The position numbers are program-made. A stretch of 64,000 bases of DNA from an uncultured Gemmatimonadales bacterium (lineage in GTDB: Bacteria > Gemmatimonadota > Gemmatimonadetes > Gemmatimonadales > Gemmatimonadaceae): contig CAWBZV010000003.1 in the NCBI GenBank assembly GCA_963793305.1, forward strand, positions 480,001-544,000. The letters are read 5' to 3'. How positions within the stretch are numbered: position 1 is the stretch's first letter; each line of letters starts with the position of its first letter. Of this stretch, positions 15,001-36,000 are shown in pieces.

Positions 15001-18000
15001 GATGACGTTCACTTGCGAGAACAACGCTGGCACTGAGCCATGACTCACTGCGTTGGTCTGTACCGGCTCTCCTTTGCCGTCGGCGAATGTTCCCCGGAGC
15101 TCATAACTCCGTGGCCCGCCCAGCATCCGGAGCGAGTTCCAGAAGTCGAGCGTGCGAATCTGATAGCTCACATCTCGCAGCATCCCGATGATCTTGCCCC
15201 CCCTGATCTCATAGAAGAGCTGGCCGCCGAACTGCGCGTTGTATCGTTGATGGTCGATCGAGAATGAGCCGTTGCCGATGATCGCGATGCCGTGGTCAGT
15301 CGCGGCGATCAGATCTTCCCACATCAGGTCGTGATCACCCGGCAGGAGCGACACGTTCGGCATCCGCTGGAACTGTATACTTGCCCAGTCTTGCGCGTAG
15401 GAACAGCCGTGCGAGCGTGTGGGCCGTCCCGTTTTGTCGTACCACCACCTCAGCCACTGGGCCTGCTCGCGGGTGGTTTGATAATCGTCCAGTATCCCGT
15501 TCTTGATCAGCAGGAAATCATCCGGCGCGACGCCATCATCGTCGTATCCAATTGTGGCCAAGGCGCCCGGTTGGGAGCGGTCGGCCCGCACGTTCATGAT
15601 CGAGGGCCCATATTGCAGCGCACCGAGCACTTTCTCCGGCGGTGCGACGAAGCTCGTGCCGGCCAGGTTCGCTTCATAACCCAGCGCGCGGTCGAGCTCC
15701 GTCGCGTGGCCGATCGACTCGTGAATGGTGAGCCAGAGATTCGAGGGGTGGAGCACGAGATCGTATCGCTCGATCTCGACCGGCTTCGCACGCAGCTTTG
15801 TCGCGGCCTGCTCGGCCCACTCACGGGCACGGTCGACGAGGCCAAGTTCATCGACGTATTCCCACCCACGTCCCATTGGCGCCAGCGGGATACTAATGGA
15901 TTGAAATGCGGTGCGGTCCGATGAAATCGCGGTGAGGTCCATGGACGGTCCGCTGCGGATTGCGGTCTGGGAGATCACCGAGCCATCAGTCGAGGCGTAG
16001 TGACGCTCTTCTTTGCCGAACCACAGGCTGCTGGACGCGAACTCCACCTTACGAGTTGCGAGCGCAGTCGAGTTGGCCCGCAGTAGCAGGTCGACTTCCT
16101 GTTCGACCGTTACATCGAACGGATCGATGCGGTAGGGGCTAGCCCACCGCGCGCGTTGAGCCGGCGCCGCCGCGAGCTCGACCGGCATATCACGAGCGGC
16201 ACGCGAGGACTTCGACACGGCCACCGCTTGTCGCGCGGCGGCGGTGACGCCGTCAGGCGTCAGCACGCGGGTCGCCGCGAAGCCCCAGGTGCCATCGACC
16301 AGGGCGCGGACGCCGCAGCCGACGCTGTCAGATTCGCCGACTCCCACAACCTGATGCTCTCGGGTTTGGATCCCGTGGCCGCGCAGGCGCTGGATCCGCA
16401 CATCTGCGAACCGCGCTCCAGCCGATTGCGCAGTGTCCACCGCGCGCGCGAGCAACGTCTCGATGGTTGGCGGGTCGTTCATGACTCGTTCCAGCCATCG
16501 GAGCGCACGACCACGACCAGTCGCGACAGCCGCCATCGCCGTGGTGTGGCTCAGAAAGTCGCGGCGGCTGCTCATACGGGTTTCACCGCACCTTCCCACC
16601 AGTGCGCATCGAGAGCTTCTTGTAATTGGTTTTGGACACCCAACCAGTCCCACCGGCTGCGTTGCCGGATGAACCGCATCGTCGGATACCACGGCGTGGT
16701 ATCGGCGAAGCCCCATTGGAAGTCACCGGGAAAGGGGAGAAGAGTCAGCGTTGGCGCACCGAGTGAGCCTGCCAAATGAGCGACAGAGGTGTCGACGGTG
16801 ATCACACCGTCGAGACTCGCGATCAAGTTGGCCGTGTCCGCGAATGACTCGAGTGGCGGGTCCGGCAACCGGAGGAATCGCTTATAGATAAAAGCCTCGT
16901 CCGCCCGTTCGCCGACCTGCAGGCTATAGAATTCAACATCGGGTCGCCAAAAGAACGGCATGAGAACGCGCAAGGACAACGAGCGCTCCATGTGGTCGAA
17001 CCACCCGCTGCACGCCCATGCGAGTCCGAGACGAGCGGGGTTCGTCCGTTCCGGCAACGTCAGCGGCGAGGGGGCTGACCGGCGCACGAAGGGCGGCAGC
17101 GAACCAACCAGTCGGGGCAGGAGGCTGGCGTTCAGCGCGCGATCAAAGTGGGCGTCGGTCCTGGTGCGATCCCACGCCTGCATGCCCGACAGGTGACCGA
17201 AGTTGTACTCAAAAAATCGTATCAAGTTCGCGTCGACGGCCCAGAAGATCGGCGCCGATACTCTATCGTGCAGCGCTTCGGCGAAGCGCAGCCAGCTAAT
17301 TGTTGCGCCGTAGTCAGTGAGCTCCGCGACGAGGAGCGTCTTTCCGGAGAGGTCTTCGACCCCATCCCACCAACGATCCACACCCGGAGGGAGAAACTCG
17401 GGATTGGTCGGCCATGACACGTCTTGCCAACCGTTCCAGTCGCCGAGCCGCTTCAGCGCGTCGCGTCGGTCAGCGGTGCTTTTGTCCGAGTCGTGCGGTC
17501 GAGTCAAAGCGAGAGCTACACCCCAGCGCCAGAGAGGGATGGAACCACCATCCAAGCACGCGTTGGCGAGCCGGTAGAGATGTACGGGGTTCTCGCGCTC
17601 GCGGCTGGCATGCGCGACGTATAAGTCGATCCGATGCGTCTCCGGGAGGTCCCGAAAGGCGGCGCGGCAGGCCTCGAAGTAAAAGGCGACGTTGTTCGTG
17701 GTCATCCTAAATCACGGCTCCCGGTCAGAACGACGAGCATGCGAAAGTGGCGCGGCGACGCGGCTCATCCTGGTTCACCGATACCCAACCGCCTGCAGCT
17801 CGAACAGCTCAGCATACAAGCCGTTCTGCTTCAGGAGGTCTTGATGCCCGCCGTCCTCGACGACGGAGCCGTGTTGGAGAACCACGATGCGGTCGGCCAT
17901 GCGGATCGTCGAAAATCGATGCGAGATGAGCATGGCCATCCGGCCGGCCATCAACTCGGAAAAGCGCAGAAAGACCTCGTACTCGGCCCGAGCGTCCAGC

Positions 18001-33000: not shown

Positions 33001-36000
33001 GACCTCGATCACCTTGCTCGACCTCTAAGTACCACCGTGACCAAGATCTATCGCACACCGCGCGTCATCGCGCTTGGACCCGCCGATCAGCTGACGACTG
33101 GTCTCGTATGCTCGTCCAATAGATACGAGACCATCGGCTCGAACGTCCATCGCGTTGCTCGATCTCTGACTACCGCTTCTCCGCCTCTCCCGCGCGTAAG
33201 TAGGTGTCGAACCACGCCAAGCGTCGTCGCCACACATCGCGAACGTTCGCGGGAGATGTGATGGCGTGACCCTCTCCCCAGTACCGCACGAACTCGACAC
33301 GTTTCCCCTGGCGAGCGAGCGACGAGAACATCTCCTCCCCTTGTTGGATCGAAACGAAATCCATATCGCCCTGAACGATCATCACTGGCGTATCGATCCG
33401 ATCGACGTAGTTGATGGGATTGTTCCTCGCATAACGCAATGCATTCTCCCATGGCGGCCCACCCATTCGAGTCTGGCCTGATTCTCCACCGGGCAGGCCA
33501 CCAATCCAATCTCCAGTGGCGGCGTCTCGGTAACGGCGAAAGGTGGAGAAAGCACCGAATTCCGATATGAGGTCCGACGGAGCACACTCGGCGATGGCGG
33601 CTTTGAACCGATGGGTGAATTCGATGATCCCATACGTGCTATACCCGCCATAGCTACACCCTTCGATTCCAATCCGATCAGGATCGGCGTATCCCATCTC
33701 GATCGTCTTATCCACCGCGGGTAATACGCCCTTCGGCAGATCGATGAAATTGTCACCGGGCTGTGTCCTGTCGCCGACGAACGGCATGCTCGGATACAGG
33801 ACAAGATAGCCAGCACCCGTCCAGAGTGCGTCCTCCAGACTCGGGTTGGTATCCGCCGCGCTTTGTACGCTTCCGTCGTATACGATCGTCACCATGGGAT
33901 ACCGTCGGCCGGCGACGTATCCAACTGGCAGCTGGAGCGTTGCCGTTAACGAATCGCCCTCCATTCCAAGATATCGGAGCGCGATCTTTCGGCCACGATC
34001 GATTTGCTCGGCGCCAGCATTGAGCGTGAGCACGGTATCGCGCTCGTGCAGCACCAAGTCAACTCGACCATCCGGTCGTGCCTGAACTGCAAGCGGTAGC
34101 GGCTTCCGACCTTCGATCGCGGACGGCGTCGCCTCGATCGGCGTTAATACGGCGTCTCCGTGCGCGCTGATCCGATACCACCGGTCGTCCTTCGGCACAT
34201 TGCGCTGCACGTGAACCACTACGGATCGTCCATTGGTTGCCCACACGGGCCGCGCGGGCCCAAAGTTGAATATCTGACTTTCCATGCCGCCGACAACGGC
34301 GTCGAGTGAGCCGGTTGAATCGACCCCCACCCAACTCGGTGACGTGGCACGGTCGAGCGGGATAATCGCTATGCGAAACCCGGGAATGTATTCTCCATAG
34401 AGTGCGGACGTACCCTTCCACTCGGATATCGGCACGGGGACGACAATCGCAAGGGTATGACCGTCCGGAGACACGGCGCCGACGGACGGCCAGTAGTCCG
34501 GAACGTGCCGGTAGTCACCGATGGGAATGGGTGCGAGCGCGGTGCTCGTGTGCGACCTGACGTTGACCAGGGTGAGCTTCAAAGGCGCAAACGATAGCGG
34601 CGGCGCGCCCGGTCCCGCGTCGAGTACGCTGGCAGTCGATACCGTGCCACGTTCCTGCAGTGGCCAGGCGCGTTCGGTGATCCGCTGGGGTTCGGTCGTT
34701 TCGTGATACCACTCGCCGGTCGCGCCAGCAGGAAGCGCGGCGAAAATCAATGTGCTGTCGCTCAGCCACCGGCAGTGGGCGAACGTTGCGCCCTGGACGC
34801 CATCGTACAGCCCACGCTCGTATTGCGCCAACTGCAGCCTGACCTGCTGATCCACGCCTTGTTGCGTCGACAGTTCGAGCCGATCGCGCTGTCGGTCCCA
34901 GACATAGAGGTGAACGTTCTCCCCTCCCTTGCTGGAAAGCATCGCCAGTCGGCGGCCATCGGGCGACCAAACCGGATCCCAGTACCCACTGGCGTCGGAT
35001 TTACCTTGCGTGAGATTCCGGCGCACCTGTCCGGTCGAGGAGAATACCCACACGTCGGACCGCTCGTGCTCCATGCCGGTGTATCGCTCTCCTGGTGTCG
35101 CGGGTCGATCGATCGTGACCGCCACCCAAGCGCTATCTGGGGACGCGGTGACCTGTCGCGGAGCGGGAATCAGCGTGAGCAGATCATTGACCACTGCCGG
35201 TCGCTTGTTCGCGTGAGTGACATTGACAGAACGTGCGACGTGGTTTACTTGCGCTCGAGCCCAGCCCAAGACGAAGAATTGCAATGCGCACGCGAGGGTC
35301 ACCAATTTAAGCATTTGAGTCAATGCACCCGTGGTAGTTCGGATTATACTGATCGCCAGCGACGGGAAAGACGACGCTCGAGCCGTACATGGCCGGGCCA
35401 CCCCGATAGGGTCCCATGGGGAACACCGAGTTCGCGCTCAGGCCGTACTGACGAACGAGACGACGCAAATCACCCTGGCGATGGCCCGTTCCGAACAACC
35501 AAAAAGCTCGCTCGCGGAACATGACGGACAGTTGCATGCTCGCCGACGCCGTGGTCGTCGAATCGGACGTGAGTGTGTCCATGGCCGGTGTTATCGCATT
35601 CTGCCGAAGCGAGTTCAAGATTCCCGACCACGTAGAGACTTGGCCGCCCTTGAGCGCCGCCTCCGCTATCAACAGCTGGGCTTCAATGCCGCTCGCCATG
35701 GTCAATGACGAGGCGCCGGTTGTCACCAACCCATCGGCGTACGTCGTGGTGCCAGAGCCCGAAACGGCGAGAATAGGGAGTCGTGGGTCGCCCGCGCTGA
35801 CGAACGGCAACCCATTCTCACCTTCGCGATCGGACACCGAAACGATCGGGTTCGCGATCGTATTGTTGTAGATCGCGTTGATGTCGGTCGCGCCATCCAA
35901 CTCGGCCGTGTAGACAAAGCCGAGCGACACGTTGGCGACGGCGGCGGCGGCGGCGGTGAAATCGCCGCTATCCGCATAGGCTCGCCCACGCAGAACGGCA

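Follow-up and report, generated by a model that had tools for sequence, protein, structure and literature searches.

The known glycosylated lasso peptides rely on enzymes other than those described here, namely the GT2 enzyme IgtG and the nucleotidyltransferase PsmN (PMC11912497, PMC9266682). The davasins are products of the igt cluster of Streptomyces davaonensis, which resembles our locus in being a lasso cluster with split B1/B2 genes and a glycosyltransferase (GT), and which is the one lasso system with an in vitro GT (PMC11912497). In the account given there, the davasin GT places one to four hexoses on a serine of the peptide, acting on the mature lasso and not on the leader-bearing precursor. 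Pseudomycoidin, from the psm cluster, is also a glycosylated lasso peptide; its hexoses are reported to sit on phosphoserine, to need the kinase PsmK together with PsmN, and to be added without any GT gene in the cluster (PMC11912497, PMC9266682). Neither a PsmK-type kinase nor a PsmN-type nucleotidyltransferase was found among the scanned ORFs of the island analyzed here. For lasso clusters that contain an isopeptidase, glycosylation is not described in the passages on that group in PMC9266682, and the GT9-fold family had not previously been tied to lasso peptides.

The window, the whole stretch of 64,000 nucleotides that we analyzed, holds a lasso peptide cluster that we think is probably of the isopeptidase type and equipped with a dedicated module for glycosylation (all coordinates are positions within the window unless named as contig positions). 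The first-pass annotation had described a lasso cluster with at least three precursor genes and two more decayed copies, and both parts of this description were borne out. Profile searches of ORFs recovered B1, the RRE of the lasso core (29788-30099, +; PF05402 55 bits, NF033536 50 bits), the B2 leader peptidase (30096-30479, +; NF033537 53.1 bits against a cut-off of 33, PF13471 63 bits), whose gene overlaps that of B1 by 4 nt at the 30096 junction, and an asparagine-synthetase-like lasso cyclase (30446-32299, +; PF00733 105 bits; start uncertain), which scores 174 bits (E 7e-51) against the lasso-cyclase profile NF033535, below its cut-off of 525. Translation located the intact precursors A0 (26694-26822, +; 42 aa), which lies within the string of GT genes, A1 (32489-32620, +; 43 aa), and A2 (32648-32782, +; 44 aa). 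All three have a YxxP leader, Thr at position -2, a Glu at core position 8-10, and a Thr three residues past it; the ring acid is Glu8 in A0, Glu9 in A1, and, in A2, Glu10 or Glu9, depending on whether the core starts at Gly or one residue later. Three-frame translation also shows the two decayed copies (about 32890-33170, +), in which the start codon is absent or the tail lies in a different frame. Homology shows B1, B2, and the cyclase, together with precursors that fit the rules for lasso peptides, and the cluster is a real one.

The island extends further downstream than had been annotated, with an S9 peptidase that is a candidate lasso isopeptidase (33170-35401, -; PF00326 91 bits; NF033523 86 bits, below the cut-off of 400), a SusD-like protein and a SusC/RagA TonB-dependent transporter whose N-terminus sits in a separate frame (35307-39979, -; PF07980 E 0.0045; TIGR04056 377 bits, cut-off 368), a FecR-like anti-sigma factor labeled by sequence appearance (39983-40990, -), which shares 67-70% identity with its counterparts in the related genomes G001 and G005, and an ECF sigma factor with sigma-70 r2/r4 domains (41162-41746, +). 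An ABC exporter (17775-19650, -; PF00005 in both parts; split by a frameshift near 18400) is also present; tblastn placed homologs of it, 56-80% identical, in lasso clusters of the genus that lack the GT. The three extra RREs announced by the first-pass annotation are in fact two within its range and one outside it. The first (19776-20126, +; PqqD family, PF05402 49 bits) stands alone and is convergent with a gene for a Cys-rich, CxxCxxCC-like protein (20087-21171, -), the second (29102-29449, -; PF05402 51 bits) precedes GT8, and the third (3315-3608, +; PF05402 31.7 bits) lies among AraC-family genes (1278-2186, 3647-4447, and 4567-5652; HTH_18). AraC-like genes are also found beside GT-free lasso clusters. 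The Cys-rich gene has two frameshifts, and a low-depth contig from run X1 is one base shorter at position 20642 within it; G005 encodes an intact 387-aa homolog (BLASTP 52% and 34% identity in two parts; PF03692 E 0.0035) in a lasso cluster without the GT. Several frameshifts and lesions occur across the island.

As annotated, the range holds eight paralogs of about 380 aa, with 33-43% identity to the copy starting at 26832; this set was incomplete, as a ninth subfamily copy (about 2092-3271, +; frameshift near 2580), directly followed by the third RRE, had been overlooked, and G004 encodes an intact 393-aa ortholog of it at 94% identity. GT1 (16572-17705, -; TPR+GT9-fold; PF01075 E 3.3e-5) has Ala in place of the candidate catalytic Asp, which is present in its five closest orthologs. 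GT2 (21307-22455, +; E 0.002) and GT4 (23524-24648, +; E 4.5e-6, over the cut-off) are full length and keep the Asp; the Asp is also present in GT3 (22448-23461, +; E 0.009; start codon uncertain), whose C-terminal domain shows two loop deletions in alignments. GT5 (24648-25787, +; E 1.5e-5) is full length with Asn at this position, and GT6 (25762-26697, +), whose stop overlaps the start of precursor A0, keeps the Asp and is aligned without the last ~20 residues of its ortholog P0014. GT7 (26832-27992, +) is full length with Asp142, and GT8 (27965-29105, -) is interrupted by a one-base frameshift near 28165. The Asp is retained in 6 of these eight copies and in 40 of 42 subfamily rows with coverage of the loop. 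A Pfam GT9 match had been claimed for seven of the eight paralogs; as delimited here, six ORFs match (E 4.5e-6 to 9e-3), with only the N-terminal part of GT8 scanned, and the three matches over the cut-off stand.

The GT9-type fold itself was upheld by a new AF2 model of GT7 (32 alignment rows; pLDDT 91.9, pTM 0.90), in which two degenerate TPR-like helical pairs accompany a GT9-type GT-B fold. Using VIA-align, the four best fold matches were all of GT9 type: a Veillonella GT9 (Z 16.9, rmsd 3.3, 243 aligned residues), TibC (Z 15.9, 3.3, 248), WaaF (Z 15.7, 3.5, 237), and WaaC (Z 15.6, 3.3, 229). That the paralogs carry this fold is shown by homology. TibC is a protein serine O-heptosyltransferase that forms an iron-bound dodecamer and has Asp110 as candidate base (PMC4358343); Asp142 is the candidate counterpart of a known catalytic base, matched via range offsets and not by residue-level superposition. 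The fold could have been repurposed for peptide binding, chaperoning, or transfer of a non-sugar group, and some features are compatible with this: structural identity to characterized GT9 enzymes is only 9-15%, sequence likeness to GT9 is limited to ~35-55 residues (WaaC is reached only at E 0.085 across 34 residues), the Asp is missing from two window copies and the last helix from one, and profile searches found no sugar-nucleotide genes among the scanned island ORFs. Nevertheless, both lobes, the GxGD loop, and the donor-side DT(A/S)xxHLAG motif are kept across the subfamily and the wider family, and the GT9-type matches stand ~5 Z units over unrelated Rossmann folds, with the exception of one chloroplast subunit (Z 14.1). 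We regard such repurposing as unlikely. The label "heptosyltransferase" given earlier holds for the fold and does not indicate a heptose donor; ADP-heptose is one candidate.

The subfamily is narrow, being present in 4/6 genomes of the genus and absent from every other searched relative outside it. Five loci have usable context (the window island, window 2.1-3.6 kb, G001, G005, and G004); all five have an adjacent RRE and three are lasso clusters, two of them orthologous and all within one genus. The gene order is ABC-RRE-GT-B2-C-precursors in G001 and ABC-GT-RRE-GT-B2-C-precursors in G005, so that in both the only RRE is separated from B2 by a GT; their precursor leaders do not resemble the leaders in the window. 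In three genomes the RRE and GT genes overlap by 4 nt where they meet, as at GT8 in the window, and two 490-aa proteins, P0012 and P0265 (one 90% cluster, on contigs of 63 and 23 kb), are RRE-GT fusions. Their RRE is 39-46% identical to that of G001 and G005 and their GT comes from the same RRE-coupled clade, in which GT8 groups with the G001 and G005 copies and P0012. Between G001 and G005, dN/dS is 0.18 for the GT, 0.17 for the RRE, 0.18 for B2, and 0.24 for the cyclase, with dS alike at 1.12-1.20; the GTs are under purifying selection together with the core genes. This speaks against the GT genes being passengers, a decaying local expansion, or LPS and surface-glycan enzymes that neighbor lasso genes by chance. 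The lesions in the island, the size of the wider family (22,350 representatives at E<1e-30), and the fact that 11 of the 14 B2 loci of the genus have no such GT would fit that explanation. However, none of 152 loci of the wider TPR-GT9 family (2.1 Mb) had an RRE, B1, B2, or precursor match in a search that recovered three positive controls, against RRE adjacency at 5/5 subfamily loci; the window paralogs fall in separate tree branches, most with close orthologs in other assemblies, and the expansion is therefore old; a further nine PF01075 matches outside this set in the genome (seven at 65-124 bits) can cover LPS; and the frameshift at 20642 is absent from the run X1 contig. We consider this explanation very improbable.

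When the G001 RRE and its own GT were folded as a complex, in place of the window pair, the model scored 0.65 (best control 0.00), above a pass mark reached by 116/157 solved and 2/215 mismatched pairs. At least 94% of contacts were shared between runs, with partner pLDDT of at least 79, and one of the three runs scored only 0.13. GT8 matches 6/16 interface residues of this model. A Pro-Arg-x-Pro motif at the predicted docking surface occurs in 7/26 aligned GTs (the five RRE-coupled clade members, the second copy in G005, and P0004, the sister of that copy), and because GT8 alone among the eight island paralogs keeps it, RRE guidance looks plausible for one paralog per cluster and not for all eight. 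With its recurrence in G001 and G005, the overlaps, the fusion, the purifying selection, and the passing model, the association of GT9-fold proteins with RREs and lasso clusters is far better supported than the first-pass annotation could show, and the O-glycosylation interpretation given there is as a whole partly supported.

The Ser/Thr-rich tail offered as an argument for glycosylation proved weak, as Ser and Thr make up 33% of the tails in clusters that have the GT and 24% where it is absent. An invariant Thr three residues past the ring acid is a better pointer to the site: it is present in 12/12 precursors of GT-bearing clusters and 0/11 of GT-free ones, a pattern spotted before the counting rule was set. 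The cyclases of the three GT clusters belong to one lineage together with that of a locus without a GT, on a contig that breaks off within the cyclase gene, and the association may therefore be confounded by ancestry or threading. The GTs might instead be active on the AraC regulators, SusC/SusD, or the S9 peptidase, with the RRE-peptide complex as activator or adaptor in a signaling circuit. An AraC-GT-RRE-AraC cassette occurs at 2/5 loci, the one in G004 with no lasso genes or precursor match nearby; the AraC-like genes beside GT-free clusters, the folded proteins modified by TPR+GT-B enzymes like FlmG (PMC7591256), and the regulatory role proposed for isopeptidase-type clusters with a TonB transporter and sigma/anti-sigma pair (PMC9266682) point the same way. 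We give this only a small chance, as the G001 and G005 GT is lodged between RRE and B2, precursor A0 overlaps GT6 inside the GT string, the Thr tracks GT presence, and the G001 cassette lost its GT while keeping the regulators.

We therefore favor, with moderate confidence, a scheme in which a GT-B enzyme docked to an RRE adds an O-linked sugar to the precursor, probably on this Thr, while other paralogs add sites or extend the glycan. The module would be a genus-specific offshoot of widespread TPR+GT9-fold proteins. The RRE would bind the YxxP leader and dock on one "core" GT (GT8 in the window, the single GT in G001), at its N-terminal Rossmann lobe. This GT keeps only about two TPR units, and the RRE may therefore supply substrate recognition. 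The GxGD-loop Asp would deprotonate a Ser/Thr hydroxyl, most likely that of the Thr past the ring Glu/Asp, for transfer from an NDP-sugar before or alongside cleavage and cyclization; the action of IgtG on the mature lasso (PMC11912497) counts against precursor glycosylation. The other paralogs, most without the docking motif, may glycosylate additional Ser/Thr residues or lengthen the glycan, perhaps once the lasso is complete; GT1, GT5, and GT6, Asp-less or truncated, may be inactive or accessory. The ABC transporter would export the product, which may return via SusC/D to be opened by the S9 peptidase. As related genomes keep one GT beside or fused to the RRE, sugar-decorated lasso peptides are likely but unproven.

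Among known systems, the astexin, sphingopyxin, and rubrinodin clusters, as described in PMC9266682, share B1/B2/C, several precursors, an S9 peptidase, a TonB-dependent transporter, and sigma/anti-sigma genes with ours, and rubrinodin also the ABC exporter; the window differs from these descriptions in its SusC/SusD pair, AraC-type regulators, extra RREs, and GT array. The autotransporter heptosyltransferases TibC/AAH and the LPS heptosyltransferases WaaC/WaaF are the closest solved folds (Z 15.6-15.9 for TibC, WaaF, and WaaC), and TibC O-glycosylates protein Ser via an Asp base (PMC4358343), but identity is 10-14% and the window GTs carry a TPR-like pair at the N-terminus and are partnered by an RRE. 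The FlmG flagellin O-glycosyltransferases, likened here by domain description, are reported to bind the acceptor through a TPR domain and to select the donor through a GT-B domain for Ser/Thr O-glycosylation (PMC7591256, 10.1101/2022.03.25.485807); their TPR spans ~310 residues against ~90 in the window GTs, and their donors are nonulosonates (PMC7591256, bioRxiv 10.1101/2022.03.25.485807), for which the genome that contains the window gave only two weak NeuB matches. In the description of the davasins, IgtG is a membrane GT2 with a DXD motif that works with Ca2+ and UDP-glucose (PMC11912497), whereas the window enzymes are soluble TPR+GT9-fold GT-B proteins, present in up to eight copies per cluster, with one coupled or fused to an RRE.

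The island genes lie where the first-pass annotation had placed them (16572-33170), and among them a PqqD-family peptide-binding adaptor (RRE), B1 (29788-30099, profile PF05402), is encoded together with a cysteine leader peptidase, B2 (30096-30479, NF033537 at 53.1 bits against a cut-off of 33), and an asparagine-synthetase-like lasso cyclase (30446-32299, PF00733; NF033535, a Bacillota-type model, scores under its cut-off). Lasso precursors carry Thr at position -2, and so do the intact precursors A0 (26694-26822), A1 (32489-32620) and A2 (32648-32782), which also have a YxxP leader motif; the ring acid is Glu8 in A0, Glu9 in A1 and Glu10 or Glu9 in A2 by choice of cut site. 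The YxxP motif and the ring Asp/Glu at core 7-9 are rules set out in the available parts of PMC12710340 and PMC9266682, respectively. Two decayed precursor copies accompany A0-A2. When all six frames of the genome were searched by pattern, seven stretches matched, of which the precursor copies of this island make up five. An S9 peptidase gene (NF033523 at 86 bits against a cut-off of 400), SusD-like and SusC-like genes and a sigma/anti-sigma pair lie 3' of the precursors, an isopeptidase-type architecture; the accessible text of PMC9266682 describes that layout as an S9 peptidase, a TonB-dependent transporter and a sigma/anti-sigma pair. Predicted promoters and terminators were less frequent in the real sequence than in shuffled ones (1 vs 5.5 and 6 vs 10.4). 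At the other end of the island, a TldD/TldE metalloprotease pair (13655-16716, minus strand) is located directly downstream of the first glycosyltransferase-like gene, GT1, with an ORF overlapping the GT1 end. No such pair was found beside the lasso clusters of two other genomes of the genus, G001 and G005, and it is therefore probably outside the core system.

The island also encodes eight paralogues (GT1-GT8) of 310-385 aa, 33-43% identical to GT7, the copy at 26832. PF01075 matches six of the eight ORFs as delimited, over ~35-60 residues and only at profile positions ~170-228 of 247, with three of the eight passing the score cut-off; residues 15-90 resemble consensus TPR proteins. The AF2 model of GT7 (pLDDT 91.9, pTM 0.90) has a two-Rossmann GT-B fold to which GT9 structures are closest (Z 15.6-16.9), namely a Veillonella GT9 (Z 16.9, rmsd 3.3, 243 aligned), TibC (Z 15.9, rmsd 3.3, 248 aligned), WaaF (Z 15.7, rmsd 3.5, 237 aligned) and WaaC (Z 15.6, rmsd 3.3, 229 aligned), at 9-15% identity. 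The next structure is a chloroplast NDH subunit (Z 14.1), and all others score 10.4 or less. Foldseek agrees with the GT9-type matches (WaaC, E 8.7e-6), and phmmer with the GT domain gave no match among PDB sequences. A GxGD loop follows the first strand of the model, and its Asp142 starts the first helix; it corresponds to WaaC Asp13, which we take to be the WaaC catalytic base, only if the alignment is ungapped, since the correspondence is read from ranges (model 130..383 on chain 1..320) and not from a residue-level superposition. In TibC, Asp110 is the candidate base, according to the available part of PMC4358343. This candidate Asp is present in 40 of the 42 subfamily rows that cover the loop and in six of the eight window copies (Ala in GT1, Asn in GT5), a count from which a fragmentary ninth copy is excluded as it does not cover the loop. 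We regard it as quite unlikely that the GT9 fold has been repurposed for a role other than glycosylation.

Some copies carry lesions as assembled. GT6 is without its last ~20 residues, at the point where A0 starts, and GT8 (27965-29105) has a one-base frameshift. Because of these lesions and the loss of the Asp in GT1 and GT5, four copies look intact as assembled, and a fifth does if the GT8 frameshift is an error. Another frameshift of the island, at 20642, is absent from a contig of sequencing run X1, which is possibly from the source or a near strain, at a depth of 2.8, and that contig may itself err; coverage of the island by runs X1 and X2 is patchy, at a depth under 5, and the GT8 frameshift lies outside it.

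Comparable clusters occur in G001 (contig C90: ABC, RRE, GT, B2, cyclase, five precursors, S9, SusC and anti-sigma genes) and G005 (contig C241: ABC, GT, RRE, GT, B2, cyclase, four precursors, S9 and so on). Since each has one RRE, this RRE must also serve as B1. The B2 and cyclase of these two clusters share 33-37% identity with their window counterparts, and the leaders are unlike the window's. In all three clusters the RRE stop and the GT start overlap by 4 nt, and the overlapping GTs (GT8 in the window) group with P0012 (SH-aLRT 91), a 490-aa protein in which an N-terminal RRE of 115 residues, 39-46% identical to the G001 and G005 RREs, is fused to a GT. A second fusion protein, 99% identical to P0012, comes from another contig, and a search with the RRE part of P0012 identified only P0012 among 321 candidates. 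An adjacent RRE is found at all five subfamily loci with usable context, three of which are lasso clusters. Collection scans with the subfamily alignment were dominated by a motif common to the wider family of TPR-GT9 proteins, and among the matches listed one of 153 loci is a close member (L030); this sixth subfamily locus is, at 1.7 kb, too short for context and outside that count, and the other 152 serve as a control for the wider family, not as a census. A tblastn of these 152 loci, which together span 2.1 Mb and in many cases have short flanks, detected no B1, B2, RRE or precursor and gave five weak asparagine-synthase matches; an RRE profile, which did pick up three positive controls, had no match in them. 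Between G001 and G005, dN/dS is 0.18 for the GT, 0.17 for the RRE, 0.18 for B2 and 0.24 for the cyclase, at a dS of 1.12-1.20. As counter-evidence, 11 of the 14 B2 loci of the genus are without such a GT, three of the 11 being cut off or without a cyclase match. Setting these loci against the dN/dS values, we consider it very unlikely that the GT genes are mere passengers of the lasso clusters.

The first-pass annotation also counted three extra RREs in the island, but its range contains two; a further RRE (3315-3608) lies outside it, directly after a frameshifted ninth paralogue (about 2092-3271) and between AraC-family genes. G004, another genome of the genus, has an AraC-GT-RRE-AraC cassette, and in G001, some 10 kb from its own lasso cluster, there is one from which the GT has been deleted. 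Given these cassettes on one side and the three lasso loci on the other, that active GTs glycosylate neighbouring proteins as part of a regulatory circuit seems to us unlikely. The AraC-GT-RRE-AraC(-AraC) arrangement is shared by the source genome G000 and G004, and the G001 version keeps the RRE and the regulators; the loci concerned are window 1278-5652, L029:5699-8887 and L027:4561-7675. Between G000 and G004 the RRE is far more diverged (67% identity) than the GT (94%).

The proposed binding of the RRE to the GT is backed by a model of the G001 GT with its upstream RRE, which scored 0.65 (runs 0.66, 0.13 and 0.65) against 0.00 for the best control. Among solved complexes 116 of 157 attain the pass mark, and among mismatched pairs 2 of 215 do, figures that are only rough for the alignments used; according to the tool's description, 7 of 44 blindly picked neighbours also pass. 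At least 94% of contacts agree between the runs, with a partner pLDDT of at least 79. In the model, GT residues 152-177 and 276-280 contact RRE strands 29-52. A Pro-Arg-x-Pro motif located there is shared by 7 of the 26 GTs aligned, namely the five members of the RRE-coupled clade, the second copy of G005 and that copy's sister P0004. GT8, identical at 6 of the 16 interface residues, is the only one of the three window copies in that alignment to have the motif; in the window alignment the remaining seven GTs all lack it.

The first-pass annotation had predicted glycosylation of a Ser/Thr-rich tail, a marker we rejected, as tails contain 33% Ser/Thr in precursors with a GT and 24% in those without, a small difference. 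We compared the precursors downstream of 11 complete cyclases (three with GT, eight without), plus A0, under one cut-site and ring-residue rule. At ring+3, the third residue after the ring Glu/Asp, Thr is present in 12/12 precursors with a GT and 0/11 without, two of the latter having Ser, a pattern that was noticed before the counting rule was fixed and in which many precursors are near copies; Ser/Thr at +7 is found in 8/12 and 0/11, respectively. The GT-cluster cyclases form one branch (SH-aLRT 91) together with the cyclase of a GT-less locus, which is interrupted by the end of its contig, and the three alone are not a clade (p-AU 0.004). The association amounts to about two independent observations, and threading could be an alternative cause. 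From the precursor comparison, the ring+3 Thr is the best candidate for the glycosylation site. The G001 and G005 precursors (L025:13390-14010 and L028:5730-6700) have an unusual Glu/Asp at -1. The first residue of their predicted cores is Lys, Thr, Cys, Leu, Ile or Met, and in some cores the acid is at position 10; their cut sites may be one residue later than predicted.

No sugar-nucleotide genes were found among the island ORFs scanned. Outside the island, G000 encodes HldE-type domains I (317 bits, cut-off 345) and II (194 bits, cut-off 181.5), a GmhA-like gene product (146 bits, cut-off 209) and nine other PF01075 matches. Judging from these matches, ADP-heptose is probably available in the host, and we treat it as a candidate donor only. 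A nonulosonate donor is unsupported, there being only two weak partial NeuB matches in this 92% complete genome.

Starting from the observed folds, gene order, fusion and selection and from the modelled docking, we infer activity, site, donor and order of steps as follows, and consider the core of this reading rather probable: an RRE-docked GT-B enzyme O-glycosylates the lasso precursor, probably at ring+3, and other paralogues add sites or extend the glycan. The RRE would grip the YxxP leader and dock on the core GT, replacing a long TPR array as the acceptor-binding module. The GxGD Asp would then activate a Thr/Ser hydroxyl for transfer of the sugar from an NDP-sugar, after which the core would be cut by B2 and knotted by the cyclase. 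Further sites or a longer glycan may be the work of the other paralogues, perhaps on the finished lasso. A more elaborate version, in which the GT-B enzyme primes a fixed Thr and specialised paralogues then assemble on the knotted peptide an oligosaccharide of defined structure, which may consist of heptose, is tentative, and we rather doubt it.

The subfamily of close relatives of the window GTs is narrow. A profile search that scored 8000 proteins found 115, which fall into a close group of 27 at 355-510 bits, two of them from the window, and a distant one of 88 that reach at most 215 bits and are mainly long TPR proteins. The close group is present in four of the six genomes of the genus and in none of 395 other genomes of the family, a count from a stricter first look and to be read as a floor, and in an order-level sample of 300 genomes the best score outside G000 was 245 bits; within the genomes searched, the subfamily is seen in one genus only. 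The two named close homologues are from Gemmatimonadaceae. The wider family comprises 22,350 representatives (50% identity) at E<1e-30, a search dominated by multi-domain giants, with 5 of 150 subfamily-sized among the matches listed. The ESM Atlas returned unnamed clusters only, with PF01075 on 11-26% of members, and a plasmid tblastn found wider-family proteins only (best row 38%). In a quick tree, one outgroup row of which was in the wrong frame and was disregarded, the window copies are spread over separate branches, and most of them have close orthologues in other assemblies (for example P0001 with GT7, P0014 with GT6, P0018 with GT3); the array is therefore old and diversified rather than a recent duplication. 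Because the longest contigs recorded for P0003, P0006 and P0015 are of equal length (523,951) and P0016 and P0023 have consecutive accessions, GT arrays probably exist in other genomes. Many wider-family proteins (P0116-P0264) of 1200-3100 aa have three to nine matched GT9/TPR stretches per chain, so multi-GT arrays recur there as fusions.

Lasso B2 genes occur in all six genomes (G000-G005), 14 in total, and one short-core cluster type is common to G000, G001, G003, G004 and G005. Several genes near these clusters are of interest in themselves. A Cys-rich protein (window 20087-21171, minus strand) with a weak PF03692 (CxxCxxCC) match adjoins an extra RRE, and in a G005 lasso cluster that has no GT its intact homologue (L188:13209-14372) neighbours a homologous ABC exporter, which makes it a second candidate enzyme for lasso tailoring; no lasso gene was seen within 1.5 kb of its homologues in G030 and G145, and its ESM Atlas leads all score below 0.9. 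That G005 cluster (C261) also has a DUF6065 protein (L188:9562-10374, 280 bits) between B1 and the ABC exporter. A 403-aa ORF (L025:5199-6410) heading the GT-bearing G005 cluster has a faint methyltransferase match (E 0.017) and a GNFGD motif resembling the GT loop, and is possibly a sugar-modifying enzyme. Ser/Thr protein kinases lie beside B1 in two GT-free clusters, at L003:7597-8538 (Pkinase; about 762.6-763.5 kb on contig C3 of G000) and, by sequence appearance only, at L191:9311-10210; the precursors of both have long Ser/Thr/Asp-rich tails, and these peptides are candidates for lassos phosphorylated by a eukaryotic-type kinase. Finally, at L189:2640-6920 (G005, C164) a B2-like match is accompanied by PqqD-like ORFs and short ORFs with YxxP but by no cyclase match, and the locus is perhaps a non-lasso RRE-dependent peptide system.

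To our knowledge, glycosylated RiPPs are rare. That the island is a real lasso cluster with an RRE-coupled TPR-GT9 tailoring module, previously undescribed in the literature searched, is well supported. The available portions of this literature, which covers few subscription journals, describe no enzyme of the GT9 fold from a lasso or other RiPP cluster, and our searches found no characterised member of the wider family. The accessible text of PMC11316326 mentions lasso clusters and heptosyltransferases of marine Gemmatimonadota separately. In the RRE survey PMC12710340, which totals 1,158 fused Pfam domains, PF01075 is absent from one supplementary file, and the rest of that list may bear on novelty; the parts available name RRE fusions to GT2 (PF00535), and RREs are described as general adaptors for tailoring enzymes in excerpts of PMC13381572. 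If the more elaborate version above, the one that we rather doubt, is true, the system would be a leader-guided peptide O-glycosylation assembly line, giving the GT9 fold a RiPP role and the large uncharacterised TPR-GT9 family its first substrate. An RRE-coupled GT-B enzyme, being leader-directed, would be a candidate tool for site-specific peptide O-glycosylation. The reach of this predicted chemistry is limited to a subfamily seen in one genus. Because one branch has its substrate encoded next door, the wider family becomes directly testable, and the G001 five-gene version is intact and small enough to express, which makes the claim directly testable.

Two routes of lasso glycosylation are described in the available parts of the cited papers, to which a soluble RRE-coupled GT-B enzyme would add a third. 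Davasins are glycosylated on the mature lasso by the membrane GT2 IgtG with UDP-glucose (PMC11912497), and pseudomycoidin through a kinase and PsmN, acting on phospho-Ser (PMC11912497, PMC9266682). The IgtG type is a membrane GT2 with a DXD motif and a deacetylase domain, whereas the window GTs have a GT-B fold and the scanned window ORFs gave no GT2 or deacetylase Pfam match. The Psm type has an HPr-type kinase and a nucleotidyltransferase in the cluster and a C-terminal Ser; in contrast, the window precursors end in Leu, and neither enzyme was found in the 22 ORFs scanned. A likeness, drawn from described domain roles, is to FlmG, in which a long TPR array is the acceptor-binding module (available text of PMC7591256 and bioRxiv 10.1101/2022.03.25.485807), and no FlmG-type NCBIfam model appeared among the matches of 15 homologues scanned. 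For the core GT, we propose that the RRE would take the role of the long TPR array and stand in place of most of it.
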